From Ginglymostoma cirratum (lineage: Eukaryota): DNA of 64,000 nt. The stretch covers positions 7,172,312 through 7,236,311 of the forward strand of contig JAHRHZ010000125.1 of NCBI GenBank assembly GCA_024137785.1, written 5' to 3'. The notes below the pieces were generated by a model. The model did no database searches. It saw nothing but the letters and a program-made list of their open reading frames with translations, and had not been told where the DNA came from. Below are positions 2,784-62,631 of the stretch, one piece after another (position 1 is the stretch's first letter; every line of letters starts with the position of its first letter). A program made the translations under genes and the position numbers.

Positions 2784-4689
2784 CTGTAAAATAATAAAGG
2801 TAGAAAATAAGTATATGATATACATCATCAGTCAGAGCTGGTTATAAAGGTTTAATGGGTAGTTGGAATAACTTAGTGGAAACAGTGACAGAATGTGAAT
2901 TCATGCATGCAACACCACCCTTCCCCCCCCACCCCCCCACCATACTCCCCAGTTCCTTATTTCAGCCACACTAATATGTGCAAGTATGAAATGGATGTCA
3001 AATAGTTCCTCAGAGGCAGAACCCAACAATGCTGGGAGACAGTCACCCTGGGATGATTTCACATCTTTGCCTAATGTATCATGGCTACTTTCATGAACCA
3101 AAGACAGAATATTGTTAATATCACTGTTTTTTTCAATGTACTCTAATCTTTTAATGTACAGATATTATACCTTAGCCTGCACACAAAAACCAAAACGTGA
3201 AAATCTAGTAGCAACAATAGAACATATACACATGTATCTTATTCACAACATGCTTAAAGACCAAGTAATCTGTGACAGTAAATCAATAGCGATCAATAAA
3301 ATAATGTGCAAAAACTAAAACAAGGCCAGAAAATGTACCATTTTGAATTATCTCTGATTTTAATGATGCATTCCGGTAGTTTCCTAATATTACAGCTACT
3401 TCTGTAGATAGCAAATCAGATCGAAAATATAATGGAATATCAGAAATTAATTGAGAATTCTCAATGCAATATTTGCCTTTCCCTCTTCCTCTCCTACCCT
3501 ATCCACCGGTGAAACCCTTATCCATTCTTAGTTATCTTAAATTTGTCTTTGAAGAATCAATCTTGGGACACTTTTTGTAATTCACCTGTTGTTTCACTTT
3601 GATAACTTCTGAAAGGACCATTTTCTTTAATTCTGAATTCGCCTGATCCCCAGTTCCACACTGGGCACGGCTCAAGCATTTGGAAATTCTCTGGAAGGTT
3701 CTCAAGATCTGCTGTAAATTCAGCAGAGGATTTGGCAGAGACAGAGTAAATGGTCAAATCTTCTATTTCCTGGAGTTTCTACTAAGGATATTGGGAACTA
3801 TTGTCAAAATTCCACCCTATTACGTCAAGGCAATCTGATTTCTTTAGAGAATGGTAGAAAAGCAGAACAGTAGACTTGACTGAAAATTTATTTGGTCATC
3901 ACTGGGCTGTGGGGGACATCAAAGAGATTTCTTGGCAGGCATGCCAGTGAGATTCCTGTCTTAGGTGACTAGCCAAATTCTAAAGAAAACAGAAAATTTA
4001 AGTTTTGCCCATTCAAATGCTAATGTGCAATAGTTGTATTGCAGCACATGCCGGCAGTATTGCCACATATCCCATGTCTCCTATAAGATAGGAGACCTAT
4101 CTTCACGGCCTTGCCTCATGAACATACCACGAAAGCTTGGAGTTCTTGGTGAGAGAAAGGGGAAACGGGGGATCTGCAGAATCAAGCAACATGTTTAAAA
4201 TCAATTATGACTGAAGGTGAACATTAAACTGGTGGGCATGACAACTAGACTGGTATTGGGTGGGTGGAATTCTGAGATGCTAACATGAACGTTCATGCAT
4301 TGCTTGATTCCACAAAATCAATGTTAAAGATCTTCTTATGTTTTCCAAGTGACCTTTAGCTATGTGATTAAAGACCGTCGATTAGGTTGCTCTACTACCG
4401 GTATATCAGTTGATTAATTGTGCCTACACTGCAGATATCTCAAGATTTCATTGGGAGCTGGGAATTTACAGAAATTTCCTATTTATGAATTATAGACTCC
4501 TGTCTAAAACTCATGGGTTCACTGTTCAATCATTTCCATAATGTGTCAAACAGTCTTGTGGGGATCAGGAAAAGGATTGAGACAATAAATTCAGCACTGT
4601 TATTTTCACAAGGTGCTACAAACCATTAAGATGATACAATTTAAGCATTCTGCATTTGCCAATAAGATGAGTCAGTTAAACCTACAAAT

Positions 4690-7240
4690 CATATCATAGG
4701 AGCAAATGAGCAAGAATAGGCTATTCAGCCCCTCAACCTGTTCTGACATTCCAAATCACGGTTGATCATGGGTCTCATCACCATTTTCATACATTATCCC
4801 TATAACTCTTATATTTATGACTAGAAATCCTTAAATCTCTGTCTTAATGACCAAGTTTCCACAGCCCTCTGAGGTTAGAGAATTCCAAAGATTGACTACA
4901 ATTAAACAAGTTCCTCTTCATCTGAGTCCTAAATGGATTGCCCTTATTCAGAGCATGCATCCCTGGTTTTTGACCCTTCCCCAGCCAGAAGAAACATCCT
5001 TCCTTAATCTGTCCTCTCCATTCATTTAAAAGATCTGTAAGCCTCCAGAAATCTCCACTCATTCTTCTAAACTCTAGATGACACAGGCCCAATCCTCAAT
5101 ATCTCTTTACAGGTCATTCCCACCATCCCAGCAATCAGACTGCTGAACTTCCATTACACTACCTCGATGGCAAGTATACCCTTTCATAGCTAATGCTACA
5201 AAAACTGTACACAATACTTGTGTTGTGGTCTCACTAAGTCTCTAAAATTAAAGCAAAAATACATTTGTTCTTGTACTCAAATCCTCTTTTGTCAAAGCCC
5301 AACATTCCTTTTGTCTCTCTAATTGCCTGTTCCACTTGCATTCTAGTTTTCATTGACTTATGAATAAAGACACCCAGATCCTTATAGACATCAACATTTG
5401 CCAATCTCCTACTATTTAAAAAATATGCTGCACCTTTGGTCTTCCTATCAAACTGGATAACCTCACACATATCCACATTATATCTGAGCTGACATGCCCT
5501 TCTCCATTCACTCAGCTTGTCAAAAATCCCTTGAAGCCTGCATTCATTAGCTCCACAACGCAAGTTATCACCTGGCTTTGTGTTATTTGTAAACGTGAAA
5601 ATATTAAATTTGGATCGCACATCCAACTCATAGATATAGATTATAAGCTGCTGTGGTCCAAGCTTTGATTCTTTCAGTTCCCTCCTAGTGGCAGCCTGCC
5701 AACCTGAGAATGTCCCATTGCTCCCACATTCTATTTTCTTTCTGCTAACCAAACTTCAGTCAATGCCAGTATATTATACACTATCCAATGTCCTCTAAGT
5801 TTGTTTACCAGCCTCCTAAGTAACTTCATCAATATCCTTCTAAAAATCCAAAAACACGACATCGACTGGTTTCCCCTCATCTATTCTACTGCCAACATCC
5901 TAACAGATTTGTCAAACATGACTGCACTTTTGTACATTCATGTTGATTCTGCCTTTATAAATCATTACATTCTGAGCATTGTTATCACATATGAACAAGC
6001 CACAATAGTACATCATTCAGCCCTTCAAACCAGCTCTGCTATACAGTAAGATCTGATCTGATTTTCACTTCAACTCTATATAATTGCATATCCTTGACAA
6101 TATTTCATCCCCTTGGTAACCAAGACCTGCCCTAAAAATTCTGCATTCGCTGTCTTTTCAGGCAGACTTATTTTCTGTGGGATCAACACGTGTTTAACTC
6201 CTTTTTTAAAATATCTGAAGAAACCTTTCCAATCTATTTTAAGCTAATTTTCTCTGATAGGCAAACTCTCCCTTCTTAATCTGTTTGTATTGTTTGCTTT
6301 TACATATTTTCTGCTCAATCTTCTGACCTGCCACCTATCTTTGCACAATATGTCTATGAGTTTCGCCCAATTTTGACTTAAGTTAAGCATGGACGGTGGG
6401 TCCCTTGGAATTTTTCTTATCTGTTGGAATGTACCTATCCAGTGCTTTCTGAAATATTCCCCTACATGCTTGCCACTGCAACTCTATTGACCTACTTCTT
6501 AATTTAAATTATCAGATCACTTTTGTTAAGCTCTGCTTTCGTGCCCTCATGATTCCCCATGTTTAAATTCAAAATAATAGTCTTGGACCCACACTTAAGT
6601 TGCATGTGAAATTTAATTATGTTATGGTTACTGCTACCCAGAGTTGCTCTCACTGCATCTCAAAACTAGGTTTAGGATAGACTGCTCTCAGTTTGGTGCC
6701 ACAGCATGCTGGTTTAAGAAATTGTCTGAAAAGCATTCAATGAATTCCTGACCTAGATCACTTTTATCCTCATCTGATTTACCCAGTCTATATGTAGGTT
6801 AAACACCACCATGATAATCACATTCTGTCTAATAGATTTCAGTACTTGTTCTACTATTGACATTAGGCCAATAAAGGTCTGTAGTTCCCTGGTTTCTCTC
6901 TCCTATCTTTCTTAAATAGTGGGGTTACATTTGGAAACTCAAAATCTAAAGGCGTGTTCCTGAACCAATAGAATTTTTACTCATTATCACCAATACATCT
7001 GCCACACTGTTGGTCTCTCTTTTAACACAGTGTGAAATGTAGATTATTGTGTCCATGGGAATTGTCAACTTTCAGTCCCATTAATTTCTCCAATGCTACT
7101 TTTTTAAAAAACTAATTGTAATGTCTTTCATTTCCTCATTCTCACTAGTACCTTGGATCTCTATGGGAAATTTCTTCTTTCATCTTCTTTGAAGATAGAC
7201 ACAAGGTAATTATGTAGCTTCTCTGTTGTTTCCCTATTTC
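4690..7240 (-). mobile_element. Degenerate CR1-clade LINE fragments (ORF2 RT and 3' end); boundaries approximate
   Basis: ORF 5234..5752 resembles CR1 RT (LGPQ..., FTNNTK for FADDTK, KDLGVFIHKSMK, GFEYKNK). Confidence 0.8.
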
Positions 7241-13911: not shown

Positions 13912-14530
13912 AGATAACAACGTGTAGTGCTGGATGAACGCAGCAGGCCAAGCAGCATCAGAGGAGCAGGAAGGCTGACGTTTCGGTCGAGACCCTGCTC
14001 CTCTGATGCTGCTTGGCCTGCTGTGTTAATCCAGCTCNNNNNNNNNNNNNNNNNNNNNNNNNNNNNNNNNNNNNNNNNNNNNNNNNNNNNNNNNNNNNNN
14101 NNNNNNNNNNNNNNNNNNNNNNNNNNNNNNNNNNNNNNNNNNNNNNNNNNNNNNNNNNNNNNNNNNNNNNNNNNNNNNNNNNNNNNNNNNNNNNNNNNNN
14201 NNNNNNNNNNNNNNNNNNNNNNNNNNNNNNNNNNNNNNNNNNNNNNNNNNNNNNNNNNNNNNNNNNNNNNNNNNNNNNNNNNNNNNNNNNNNNNNNNNNN
14301 NNNNNNNNNNNNNNNNNNNNNNNNNNNNNNNNNNNNNNNNNNNNNNNNNNNNNNNNNNNNNNNNNNNNNNNNNNNNNNNNNNNNNNNNNNNNNNNNNNNN
14401 NNNNNNNNNNNNNNNNNNNNNNNNNNNNNNNNNNNNNTTCCTGCTCCTCTGATGCTGCTTGGCCTGCTGCGTTCATCCAGCTCTACACCTTGTTATCTCA
14501 GATTCTCCAGCATCTGCAGTTCCTACTATG
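13912..14530. mobile_element. Inverted pair of Neptune-type terminal repeats spanning the gap, 14-bp TSD
   Basis: TCTAATGAATAATG at 13898-13911 and 14531-14544. Confidence 0.85.
14038..14437. other. Assembly gap (400 N)
   Basis: Run of n. Confidence 1.
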
Positions 14531-32868: not shown

Positions 32869-33030
32869 TAATCTTTTGCCTTTTTCATTGCTGTTTTTAG
32901 AATATGTTTTTAGATTTAGCAAAATTAACAGGATATAATGCTGTCTTTGGACTGATAATGACTGTATTTTAGATCGATCCGAAAATAGATGTTGGATTTG
33001 TTTGTCAGATTTGCATGTTTTGGAACTTAC

Positions 33031-33255
33031 CCAAGGAACTGGGCACCTGATGGTCCAACTTCAATTAGCCGACTGGCATGGCCCTCTCCTTCCACCATAG
33101 GAGGCATTGTGGCCAGTCGGTGACGTTTGACCAGGCGGCACGTCACACGTGTTGGGGCTGTACACTTCCGAGGGGGAATAATAATTCGCAGCCCATTATG
33201 GCGGCAGCCCCGCATGGATCCACCACGTGCATCCACCATGAAACTAACCAGGAAA
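33031..33255 (-). CDS. ANK2: ANK2 exon, 225 nt, ZU5-N: [74 protein letters not shown](G)
   Basis: ORF 33027..33326; ttgcag acceptor, gtaagt donor. Confidence 0.98.
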
Positions 33256-34681: not shown

Positions 34682-34714
34682 CTCATTGCCTTATGCCCAG
34701 GAGGATTTTATAAA
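34682..34714 (-). other. ANK2: Candidate alternative first exon (or poison exon) ending ATG AG|gtaaga
   Basis: Strong donor; ATG AG plus T TTC CTG of the next exon reads [14 protein letters not shown]. Confidence 0.45.
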
Positions 34715-36515: not shown

Positions 36516-36950
36516 CTGCTTTGACCTCTTGACATTAACAGATCCTTGCAGCAGGTGCTTCTGGCAGTTTTGACATTTGATCTTGATAGGTTTGCTGGCA
36601 GGTCTCATGGGTCTAACAATATTGGGTTCATGCATTTTCTATACATAATCATGAATTTTTTTTTTTAACAATTCCAAAGGACACATTACCGCCCCAAAAG
36701 ATGTAGCATGAGCAGCTCCAATGGAATACTTTACTTCTCTGAGAGGATGGGGGACCCTGGTTATCTAAGTGAATCACAAAGTTCATACTTCCTCTTATCA
36801 GGTCTAATCTGCATACTACAGAGTCCAGGGCTACAACTTCTCCTGGTTCTGTGGAGGCAGCTGCTAATTTAAATAGCCAGCTGCCTCCATAATGTAGACA
36901 AAACACAGCTAGTCCCCCTTTTCTCACCCCCATGAAAATGGTAAATATCA

Positions 36951-37430
36951 CTGAGGTTGTTGACGTGCTTGTTGAGCCGGCTTGTTTTCGTTCAGACGTT
37001 TCGTCACCATGCTAGGTGACATCATCAGTGAGACCTCCGATGAAGCGATGTTATTCTACTCCGCTTGGAATTTATACTGTCCGGTCCATTATGGTGAGTA
37101 CTGTCATTTCTGGTATTTGTCTGTATGCATTTGTATATGGGGCCCAATTCTATACGTTTGTTTATTGCTTTACAGTGGAGAACAAACATATAGAATTGGA
37201 CCCCATATACAAATGCATACAGACCAAAACCGGAAATGACAATACTCACCATAACAGACCGGACAGTATAAATTCCAAGCGGAGTAGAATAACATCGCTT
37301 CATCGGAGGTCTCACTGATGATGTCACCTAGCATGGTGATAAAACGCCTGAACAAAAACAAGCCGGCCCAGCGAGCAAGTTAACAACTTCACCCACAACC
37401 AGAGCTACAAATCTTTGCGAAAACTTTAAA
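36951..37430. mobile_element. Fold-back (tail-to-tail inverted) Poseidon-type PLE terminal-repeat insertion, 11-bp TSD
   Basis: Arms 36952-~37169 and ~37174-37391 are reverse complements (mirror ORFs in the track); GGTAAATATCA at 36940-36950 and 37431-37441. Confidence 0.92.
36992..37031 (-). ncRNA. Minimal type I hammerhead ribozyme motif with intact core
   Basis: TCA-CTGATGA-T-GTCACC-TAGCAT-GGTGAC-GAAA-CGTC-TGA: 3-bp stem I, 6-bp stem II, palindromic ACGT stem III. Confidence 0.8.
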
Positions 37431-38769
37431 GGTAAATATCATTTTTTTGGGTGAGACTTTGGTTCCTGCTGTATTTTCATCCTGATGGCGTTGCTCTACA
37501 TTATGTCCAAGGCTTGGTTTTAAATTATTAAAAATGCTCATTTCCATGGGGAACCCATTTGTAACTGTATTAACGTAACCACATCAAGTTATCACTTGAC
37601 AAGAAAAGCACTTCTCAAAACATTTAATATTTTGACGGCAGTTTGTGGACAGATTACAGATTGTGTCCAAAGCTGAAACTGTGTCATATTTTGTCATTCT
37701 CAAGCAGACAGGTAACTTTTCCTTCGAAAAAAAATTAAACGTTACTACATAAAGCATTTTAGATAGTTGTCACAAATGAGAAAACAAGATTCAAAAAGGC
37801 AAAGTGTTAATATTGTTAAGAGGATATTCAAACTACAACAGGAGAAAAAAGAAAAATTTTTAAAAACAAAGCAAAATACTGCAGATGCTTGAAATTTGAA
37901 TGAATATTATTATTTCATTGCATAATAAGTATAATTCCAATCAACGATTTGTTCCCATTATAAAGTGATTTTATACAAGAAGTCCAGAGATGATACTCCA
38001 TCAAATCAAATTACCATTTCCCCCCCCCCCGCCATTTTAATTGAGTTGCTGCAATTTCAGTGCATAATAGAAATGAAACATTTATTTTTTTTATTATTAT
38101 TATCCTGGTTTGATTATTTATTTTCACAATTCCTTTATAAAAAGGAATTAAGAGTTACTTCTTTGAATATGTCAATAAGATTCCTGTTACCATTGTTCGG
38201 AAAGAATTCCAAACAATGTGATTCTCACCTCATGAATTTTTTGCATAAACAGTTTTACACCAGCAAAGGGAGTATGCATGAAAATGTTCACAGTGCACCA
38301 GTAATAATGTCAGTTATAGCCTTCTCATTCATCAAAGTGTCAGTTGAGTAAAAAAGAAAAACCACTTCAGTGCTCTGTATCATTGATGCCCTTTCGGGTG
38401 AAAATTATAGCTGCAGAATAACATTGGCTTTTGAAAAACACTTGTACTGCTACTGCAGCTGTGTAAAAATAGACAAAGTTGTTTATTCAGAATGGTCACT
38501 GAAAGGATGATGTGTGTCATGCTTCTTTCATTGACACTTAAAGACAGAACAAACATTTTAGTGTAAATTTCCATTAGTCAACAAAAACAAAAACACTAGT
38601 CCGAAAAACAAAACTACAATTTTAAAACCTGCATCTGTTTTTGGTGGTCAAGTTAATGCAAACATGCAAGGCAAGAGTGCACCAAGGCATTTGACCCAAG
38701 GTTAAAGGAGGGGTACAAAAACACGAGAAAACAAATAAAACCACACAAAGTCATGATGCAACTCTTCAC

Positions 38770-38802
38770 CTTGATTCGCTTTCAGGGACTGGAGAAGAAT
38801 AG
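38770..38802 (-). CDS. ANK2: Candidate 33-nt alternative exon, (G)YSSPVPESES(S)
   Basis: ctgcatattctgtttcag|CTATTCTTCTCCAGTCCCTGAAAGCGAATCAAG|gtgaag; phase 2-2; resembles the small SSP-containing cassette exons I recall at this junction in ANK2/ANK3. Confidence 0.75.
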
Positions 38803-39934: not shown

Positions 39935-41508
39935 CTTAAGGTTCTTACAAAGATTTGTAGCTCGAGTTGTGGATGAACTAGCTGGTTATTGTACAAGGGT
40001 CTAGGCCCGAAACGTCAGCCTTCCTGCTCCTATGATGCTGCTTGGCCTGCTGTGTTCATCCAGCTCTACACCTTGTTATCTCTGGTTATCGTACAGTTGT
40101 TTCATCACCATGCTAGGTAACATTATCAGTGCAACTTCCGATGAAACAATACTGTTCTACTCTGCTTGGTATTTATATGATCCGATCTGTTAAGTTGGGT
40201 TGTGTCATTTCTGGTTCTGTTCTGCATGGGTTTGTATATAAGGTCTAATTCCATACCGTTGTTGATTGCATTATGGGTTGAAAACCCGGTTGAAAACCGG
40301 GTGTAGGAATTCCCGTGTGTCTGTGGTTGGCTTGAGTTAGGATGGTCACGTTGTCCCAGTTAAATTGTTGGTCTTCATTGTCCGAGTGCACTGAGATGAG
40401 GCAAAGTTCGTCGAGTCGTTTTGCTGCTAGCTAGTGTTCGTATATCCTGATGGCTAGTTTCCTTCTGGTCTAGCTGATGTAATGTCTGTTGCAGTCATTG
40501 CAAGGTATTTGGTAAACTACGTTGGTCCTGCATGTCATGATTATGGGGTTTTTGGTCCTTGTACTTGTGATAGAGTGGCTGTGGGTTTGTGTGCTACCAT
40601 GATTCCTAGTGGTCGTAGGAGTCTCGTCGTCACTTGTGATATGTTCTTGATGTAGGGTAGTGTGGCCAGTGTACTGGGGCGTACACTTGGCATTGTCTAT
40701 CTAATAGGCACCCGTGGATGAAGTTGTTGGGATATCCATTGTTAGCAAAGACCTTGTATAGGTCCTCTTCCTCCTTCCTGCACAGTTCTGGCATATTGCA
40801 GTGAGTTGTGGCCCATTTGAATAGTGTCCTAACCCAGTTTTGTTCGTGGAACTTGGGGTGAATGCTGTGGAAATTGAGGATTTGGTCAGTGTGAGTTGCC
40901 TATATACTGTGGTCTGGAACTCCCCATTGGTCATTCGATCTACCTTGACATCTATAAAGGAAGTTGATTGTTGTCTTCCTCTTCTCTCATAAATTTGGTC
41001 CCGGTGAAAACGTTGTTAATGAACCACCCTACGACAAACATTCTCAAGGACCAAAAATCCCATACCCATGACATGCAGGATCAACGTAGTTTACAAAATA
41101 CCTTGCAATGACTGCAACAAACATTACAATCGGCCAGACAGGAAGGAAACTCACCAGCAGGATACACGAGCACCAGCTAGCAGCAAAACGACACAATGAA
41201 CTTTGCCTCATCTCAGTGCACTCGGTCAATGAGGGCCATCAATTTTACTGGGACAACGTGACTATCCTAGCTCAAGTCAACCACAGACATGCACGGGAAT
41301 TCCTGGAGGCCTGGTTTCCAACTCATAATGCAATCAACAATCATATGGAATAAGGTCCCATTTACAAACCCATGCAGAACAGAACCAGAAATGACATAAC
41401 CCAACTTAACAGACCAAGTCATATAAATACCAAGTGGAGTAGAACAACATCGCTTCATCGGAGGCCGCACTGAATGACTAGCCAGCTCAGCGAGCAAGCT
41501 GACAACCT
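39935..41508. mobile_element. Poseidon-type PLE with inverted structure: minus arm ~39935-41020 (RT end + GIY-YIG), plus arm ~41025-41508 (GIY-YIG)
   Basis: ORF 41108 GQTGRKLTSRIHEHQLA...AREFLEAWF; ORF 40701 NGEFQTTVYR; CATRCAAGAGA at 39924-39934 and 41509-41519. Confidence 0.9.
39996..40081 (+). mobile_element. Neptune-type terminal-repeat fragment nested in the Poseidon terminal repeat, 14-bp TSD
   Basis: CTGGTTATYGTACA at 39982-39995 and 40082-40095. Confidence 0.88.
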
Positions 41509-41864: not shown

Positions 41865-42400
41865 TTAAGTTTTTGAGAAGACTTGTAGCTCGGGTTGTGG
41901 ATGAGGCTGTACACTTGCTCGCCGAGCCAGTGTGTTTGATTGCAGATGTTTCGTCACACTTCCAATTCTGTTTTTCAGTGATTTGTATATCGGTTCCAGT
42001 TCAATGTGTTTGTTGATGGAATTCCAGGTGGAATGCCAGGCCTCCAGGAATTCCTTGGCATGTCCCTGTTTGGCTTGTGCTATTGTGAATGTGTTGTCCC
42101 AGTCAAATTCTTGTCCGTATGTATTGAGACCAGTGAGAACTGGTCATGTCTCTTGGTGGCTAGTTGGTGTTCGTGTATCCTTATTGTCAGTTCTCTTCCA
42201 GTTTGGCCTATGTAATGTTTCTCACAGTCCTTGCATGGTATTTTGTATATTACATTAGTTTTATTGGTTGAGAGTATGGGGATCCTTTACGTTTGACAGT
42301 AGCTGTCACATGATGGTTGTTGGTTTGTGAGCTACCCTGATACCTGGGGGTCTGATATGTCTCTGATGTGTGTGTCTGTCTTCTTGTGGTCTGTCGCAGA
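41865..42400 (-). mobile_element. Poseidon-type PLE 3' fragment with internal deletion
   Basis: Homologous to 39935-41020 and 62251-62590; GIY-YIG remnants. Confidence 0.85.
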
Positions 42401-47446: not shown

Positions 47447-47550
47447 CCTGAATGGATTGGACTCGACGAAAGAGCCACATTGTCCAAGTTGTCTCCTTCC
47501 CAGCTTAAGCGATATGAGGAGTCCTTGTCAGGGCCCTTGGCCAGAGCTAC
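47447..47550 (-). CDS. ANK2: ANK2 exon, 104 nt: [34 protein letters not shown](G)
   Basis: ctgcag acceptor, gtgaga donor; [14 protein letters not shown] is the ANK2 motif; phase 0 to 2. Confidence 0.95.
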
Positions 47551-62094: not shown

Positions 62095-62250
62095 ATGTTC
62101 TGGTGAATCTCCTCTGCACTCTTTCCAGTTAAAACTTGTGTCTCCCGTAATATGGATTCCAGAATTGCAAGAAATACTCAAAATGTGGTCTAATTAACAT
62201 TTTATATGGTTCCAGCATAACCTCCCTGCTCTTAAACTTTATGCTAATAA

Positions 62251-62631
62251 GGTTTTGGAGTAGATTTGTAGCTCGGGTTGTGGGTGTTGAGGTTGGTTGG
62301 CTCGCCGAGCTGGTTTGTTGTTCCGCAGACATTTTGTTACCATACTGGGTAACATCCTCAGTGCAGCCTCTGATGAGGTGTCGGTGTGTTTTCCTGCCTG
62401 GTTTTTAAACTCTGGGGTCCACTGAGCTGGATTGCCTCACTTCCGGTTTTCCTTCATAGTGGAGTGTACATGGGGTCAAGTTCAATGTGTTTATTAGTAG
62501 TATGCTTCGTGGAGTGCCAGGCTTCTAGGAATTCCGGTGCCTGTATCTGCTTGGCTTGTCCCAGGATTTTGGTGTTGTCCCAGTCGAATTGGATAAGGAG
62601 AACCACTCAGCTCGGCGAGCCAACCAACCTT
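62251..62631 (-). mobile_element. Poseidon-type PLE 3' fragment with short inverted end, in CR1, 16-bp TSD
   Basis: AACTYTATGCTAATAA at 62235-62250 and 62632-62647; decayed hammerhead at ~62325-62365. Confidence 0.88.

Follow-up and report, generated by a model that had tools for sequence, protein, structure and literature searches.

The 480 bp lying between the 11-bp duplications at 36940-37441 are a single insertion, truncated and arranged head to head, of an abundant retrotransposon, a Penelope-like element (PLE); it is a real and ordinary example of an already known PLE by-product. We are confident that two truncated PLE 3' ends are joined here, likely after priming on both target strands, that the locus is probably neutral and that its hammerhead is predicted to be inactive.

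The insertion and its setting in ANK2

The features of the window (the whole 64-kb stretch that was analysed) to which we refer are as follows.

36940..36950, no strand: left target-site duplication (TSD), 11 bp
36951..37183, minus strand: tail-less arm, sense on the ANK2 strand, central loop included, reaching from 269 nt to some 36 nt short of the family 3' end
36992..37031, minus strand: intact minimal type I hammerhead motif, with the core starting at 37028
37181..37183, no strand: junction, a 3-nt microhomology (AAC) common to both arms
37181..37391, plus strand: tail-bearing arm, comprising the last ~45 codons of the element ORF, then the stop/start in the hammerhead core and the opening codons of the unit that follows
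37312..37351, plus strand: decayed hammerhead copy, G12 to A and U16.1 to C
37392..37430, plus strand: PLE tail, 39 nt, on one arm only
37431..37441, no strand: right target-site duplication, 11 bp
38770..38802, minus strand: candidate ANK2 microexon, 33 nt, phase 2-2, in frame
40082..41473, no strand: second, asymmetric head-to-head insertion of the same PLE family

The fold-back described in an earlier, sequence-only reading is a real inverted repeat, but its arms (36952-37162 and 37181-37391) are 211 nt long rather than 218 and lie 18 nt apart. They are 91% complementary, with mismatches at 18 of the 211 sites. The insertion, previously put at about 440 bp, measures 480 bp; the 39-nt tail behind the right arm had been overlooked. 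The bounding 11-bp TSD (GGTAAATATCA) was located at both edges, as reported. The central loop is single-copy element sequence into which the left arm extends 22 nt further, and the two arms share the 3-nt microhomology at the junction. The palindrome has a predicted folding energy of -364.6 kcal/mol (z -40.7).

We consider it highly improbable that assembly or polishing created the palindrome or made its arms alike. Polishing could copy one arm over the other and so mimic conversion, and no read covering the whole palindrome was seen, but the TSD, the asymmetry of the tail and the 9% divergence of the arms all speak against an artefact, and the contig of a relative enters the element at the identical left edge. 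A one-off assembly error, which the sequence-only reading had itself raised, is not borne out, since 59 of the 89 family loci surveyed show this layout as well.

The host gene is ANK2, read from the minus strand as had been proposed: the ZU5 exon at 33027-33255 is closest to ankyrin-2 (E 7e-45, versus 4e-40 for ankyrin-3). Two candidate alternative exons had been placed around the insertion. The one at 38770-38802 keeps the frame between an exon near 47450 and the ZU5 exon and lies just before the ZU5 domain, whereas 34682-34714 reads a stop right behind its first codon in the required phase. The candidate microexon is 1.3 kb upstream of the insertion in the transcript and has fold-backs on both sides, being bracketed by the studied element and the insertion at 40082-41473 (paired arms 439 nt, 84.5%), which could cross-pair with one another at 77%. 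The literature consulted on an ANK2 microexon does not treat one at the 38770 position. Elsewhere in the window, 41867-42353 and 62249-62558 are fragments of PLE families that are more remote (~70-80% to the one studied here), and there is a further small fold-back at 13929-14035 (110 nt, 84%).

The hammerhead motif and its parent family

As the sequence-only reading stated, the ANK2 sense strand carries a complete minimal hammerhead, with the core, a 6-bp stem II, GAAA and GUC all present (CUGAUGA-u-GUCACC/UAGCAU/GGUGAC-GAAA-C-GUC), and we predict from the motif the same cut, 36995/36994. Its plus-strand copy is decayed, reading AAAA in place of GAAA and GCC in place of GUC. The motif resembles the minimal type I hammerheads of metazoan PLEs as outlined in PMC4209133 in its full conserved core, the extra base after A9, G10.1-C11.1, the long stem II and the palindromic 15.2-16.2 positions, which are here ACGU without a loop III. 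It differs in stem I, which has just 3 bp here and 2 bp in the family majority, versus 4-5 bp in the Schistosoma consensus given there. The sole hammerhead score against Rfam was to Hammerhead_3 (15.5 bits, E 0.57; gathering threshold 48.5), and a wider scan gave none. Hairpin-shaped microRNA models also scored, all under their gathering thresholds, and were rejected as shape matches. A descriptor search of both strands of the window, beyond which ANK2 extends, found no second intact hammerhead motif.

The predicted cost of forcing the hammerhead stems is 64.6 kcal/mol when the whole hairpin is folded and falls to 6.3 kcal/mol once the other arm is removed. Sequestration of the ribozyme by the complementary arm, as had been suggested, thus agrees with the predicted penalty of ~65 kcal/mol. 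It is also true that the antisense arm is transcribed first, but this is not specific to the locus: any head-to-head pair has its antisense arm transcribed first, whichever strand is read, so that sequestration is a by-product of geometry. To call the ribozyme self-silenced is an overstatement, because by the account in PMC4209133 a monomer would not be expected to cut and the fold is disfavoured by 6 kcal/mol even without the other arm. For minimal PLE hammerheads, PMC4209133 and PMC6765202 describe no cleavage of monomers and low cleavage of dimers. The motif is intact in five of 36 unselected partner arms and in nine of 53 arms of same-size copies (seven of 28 loci), i.e. in 14-17% of unselected arms, and its intactness here therefore requires no selection. 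Neither this commonness of intact motifs nor the second fold-back of the same family at 40082-41473 favours the special status that had been given to the locus. On these predictions the hammerhead would be inactive, buried in the hairpin and probably functionless.

The Penelope origin that had been proposed is upheld by the reverse transcriptase (RT) domain, the tandem unit and the layout of inverted arm, tail and TSD. A 26-nt hammerhead motif has 492 exact matches in the element's own genome (control, 0), and a DNA search of that genome returned 5247 candidates, of which 40 were scored, giving 90 matches. From four both-arm matches among the first 100 matches listed we infer a family of several thousand arms. 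The right arm can be read as the terminal part of an ORF; in longer copies, RT is found together with a GIY-YIG-like motif. One whole but broken unit, L094 (G000:C18:33671000-33678000, approximately 3500-6080), has two hammerhead cores 2491 nt apart, which makes it a partial tandem with pLTRs that include the ORF start. Its ORF fills the 2491-nt unit and continues through the tail, which consists of the opening codons of the following unit. Stop and next start overlap as TGATG within the hammerhead core, and this overlap hints at stop-restart translation across tandem units. The frame matches Pfam RVT_1 above the cut-off (E 5.9e-11), with a visible DKG motif, and has 69 relatives at E<=1e-20. 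The VYKIPCNDCHKHYIGQTGR motif is present in another copy (L114), and GIY-YIG occurs in 13-19% of members among Atlas neighbours; Pfam gave no endonuclease match, and no extra CxxC of the kind in the Neptune/Nematis zinc finger was seen by eye in the linker. The RT match list begins with a bamboo shark protein (60%), and the next named relatives come from flukes and tapeworms (40-53%), an order of matches rather than a tree, from which we draw no claim of transfer. The flanks of several loci contain another family of minimal hammerheads, whose stem II has 5 bp (GGGTC/GGCCC type).

We refer to the family as Poseidon by likeness only and not from a tree. As described in PMC11167929 for the Poseidon element PAc of Anolis carolinensis, the ORF starts at hammerhead stem II, a likeness of layout. 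The cut site lies 28 or 25 nt past two possible start codons here, versus 26 in PAc, and the element end is likewise AC-rich and lies 72 and 108-111 nt into the ORF, the two end points being ~36-39 nt apart. Unlike in the PAc of that account, the ORF here fills the whole 2491-nt unit, with its stop overlapping the next start inside the hammerhead core.

Head-to-head pairs across the family

The layout of the window copy (an inverted 5'-truncated copy, a tail of 30-40 nt on one end and a TSD) is the published PLE layout (PMC3846280; PMC8557442), and PMC4209133 notes hammerhead pairs 100-700 bp apart on opposite strands. A close likeness is to Pen2a_Av, an EN+ PLE of Adineta vaga (PMC3846280, with a scheme in PMC8557442), in which those sources describe a head-to-head inverted arm, a 30-40-nt tail on one arm, a TSD near 10 bp and a pLTR and tail that overlap the first ORF codons. 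Relative to that element, both arms here are cut to ~250 nt with no ORF body between them, and the element sits in a vertebrate whose genome measures 4.4 Gb.

Our survey drew on the first 100 matches listed out of the 492 for the motif and took 90 loci from them, or 89 after removal of one duplicate; the first 29 were fetched with 1.5 kb of flank, and loci with hammerheads in both arms were more readily picked. An adjacent head-to-head partner was found at 59 loci. The remaining 30 have none, although some have interrupted or displaced partners. Nine of the 59 pairs were left out because one arm fell short of the 3' zone. Among the 50 scorable pairs, 44 have exactly one tail (p = 1.6e-8); in these the longer arm is the tail-less one 27 times and the tailed one 17 times, and 30 of the 44 are asymmetric by more than 60 nt. 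In all, 38 of the 50 are asymmetric and 12 are near-symmetric (5' ends within 25 nt), compared with 3.6 expected on shuffling (p = 6e-5).

These data bear on whether the 480-bp palindrome could be a non-autonomous mobile unit in its own right (MITE-like or retrozyme-like), with a palindromic master as its source. The DNA search did yield 33 copies of similar size and layout, and a few junction points recur (e.g. in L007 and L024). However, the ranking that brought up these 33 was by likeness to the query, their junction offsets range from -74 to +97 (+22 in the window copy), and arm lengths in the motif-picked sample run from 34 to ~1480 nt, with no fixed length or centre; microhomology can explain the recurrent junctions. 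As junctions differ between copies, the palindrome is made at each insertion, and TSD-like repeats surround 22 of 28 same-size copies. A mobile palindrome is thus largely refuted already, and we give it hardly any credence. The copy shares with the non-LTR retrozymes of bioRxiv 10.64898/2026.07.22.740005 that it is short, non-coding, PLE-derived and endowed with a type I hammerhead. Retrozymes, by that description, are head-to-tail tandem units, each with a hammerhead, whereas this copy is head to head and its own two arms cannot give a dimer in cis.

The pathway that we favour builds on PAc, whose protein nicks and extends both strands, with two start sites that delimit the tail and with a dispensable hammerhead (PMC11167929). 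The element protein would prime reverse transcription on both target strands, producing one cDNA per strand; one would begin at the tail end and the other ~36-39 nt inside, corresponding to the two start sites reported in vitro for the anole PLE. Both cDNAs would halt after ~250 nt, and their 3' ends would be joined via the 3-nt microhomology, by direct annealing or after fold-back, with fill-in yielding the 11-bp TSD. The excess of symmetric products would require some coupling, either a cDNA that folds back on itself or run-off at the same end of the RNA. The arms may later have decayed by ~5% each, probably with some arm-to-arm conversion, and in ANK2 pre-mRNA the hammerhead would lie buried in a 211-bp hairpin, for which incidental A-to-I editing is plausible. 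Among the contigs listed for runs identical to the window, no piece of this locus's own arm appeared, and no RNA run was among those listed for it.

Other routes have been published: PMC3846280 proposes self-priming on an antisense template, and PMC8557442 ascribes the tail to resolution by the endonuclease. Self-priming of this kind, or pure single-strand snap-back, could have made the mirror arm in place of both-strand priming. The near-symmetric excess and the rare variants that paired arms have in common (65 versus ~6 expected) fit such an origin, but 38 of the 50 pairs are asymmetric with either arm the longer, and one snap-back would hardly yield exactly one tail and a TSD. We therefore judge this origin unlikely. 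Against our reading of neutral, both-strand-primed insertion stand the 30 of 89 loci that show no adjacent partner, an 83-nt tract identical between the arms of the window copy, which may be under selection, the probable presence of the insertion in a relative, the failure of Pfam to score the endonuclease and the self-priming route of PMC3846280. Literature searches, mainly of openly accessible papers, listed nothing on twin priming in Penelope, palindromes of shark PLEs or conversion between arms.

Sharing between arms and its meaning

The arms of the window copy have eight non-CpG differences from the family majority in common and differ from each other at 13 of 193 such sites. Three of the shared changes are private to this locus, one of them resembling CpG decay after an earlier change. 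The 83-nt tract is close to the family majority and covers the 5' half of the hammerhead; none of 4000 simulations reproduced it, while a cruder count with adjacent changes merged gives ~0.01. Origin of the shared variants from a source subfamily was tried and rejected: a 22-mer with three of them exists only in the two arms of this locus, a looser form occurs at nine scattered places, and the stem I variant is in none of the first 100 listed out of 651 matches. The sharing here may reflect conversion, a decayed source copy or a polishing artefact.

Across the family, symmetric pairs share more than asymmetric pairs (median ratio 0.56, n = 12, versus 0.78, n = 29; p = 0.013). For symmetric pairs the direction of CpG decay is concordant in 25 of 34 cases (p = 0.008), but the same-size copies gave no such excess (32 of 60, p = 0.63). 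Conversion tracts were not significant family-wide, reaching p<0.05 in 2/11 symmetric and 1/24 asymmetric pairs, in 4/27 same-size copies and in 3/28 cross-locus controls. The best candidate for wholesale arm conversion, or for a polishing error, is L046 (G000:C96:390400-393900, 1528-1966), whose arms have 26 departures from the family majority in common (CpG decays in both directions among them) and differ at only two aligned sites. Taken together, the family data suggest concerted evolution in small retroelement palindromes.

In a relative with 4.2% divergence in the flank (93 of 2202 letters), one contig crosses the left edge of the element, aligns there over 19 letters and stops 12 letters further on. 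The insertion thus seems to be common to a relative ~4% diverged in its flanks, marginally so by the bridging rule, and would have persisted.

Such persistence, the mutation-free tract, the great stability of the hairpin and an in-frame microexon candidate nearby between fold-backs are what could be said for co-option, in which an edited or diced hairpin or a gating ribozyme would tune ANK2 splicing near the 38770 microexon. We find this very unlikely, given that the 18 differences between the arms are about what neutral decay produces in the family, intact motifs are frequent by chance, stem I has 3 bp with no dimer partner found in the window, and an in-frame stop interrupts the second candidate exon.

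In our view the ANK2 insertion is probably neutral. Genomes of this kind place many long dsRNA hairpins in introns, and an intact ribozyme within an intronic hairpin should not be equated with regulation without RNA data. The ANK2 locus itself is of little consequence, and the value of the analysis rests on the family counts. It is conceivable, and we suggest it tentatively, that these thousands of decayed copies preserve in vivo how PLEs integrate: both target strands primed, each from a different one of the two start sites (in line with the single tail of 44 of 50 pairs), a quarter of the pairs finished by a coupled route into near-perfect palindromes, these palindromes then exchanging sequence between their arms, and the hammerhead kept or erased without selection. 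The counts provide testable numbers for PLE integration, namely two start sites on opposite strands and an excess of symmetric products.
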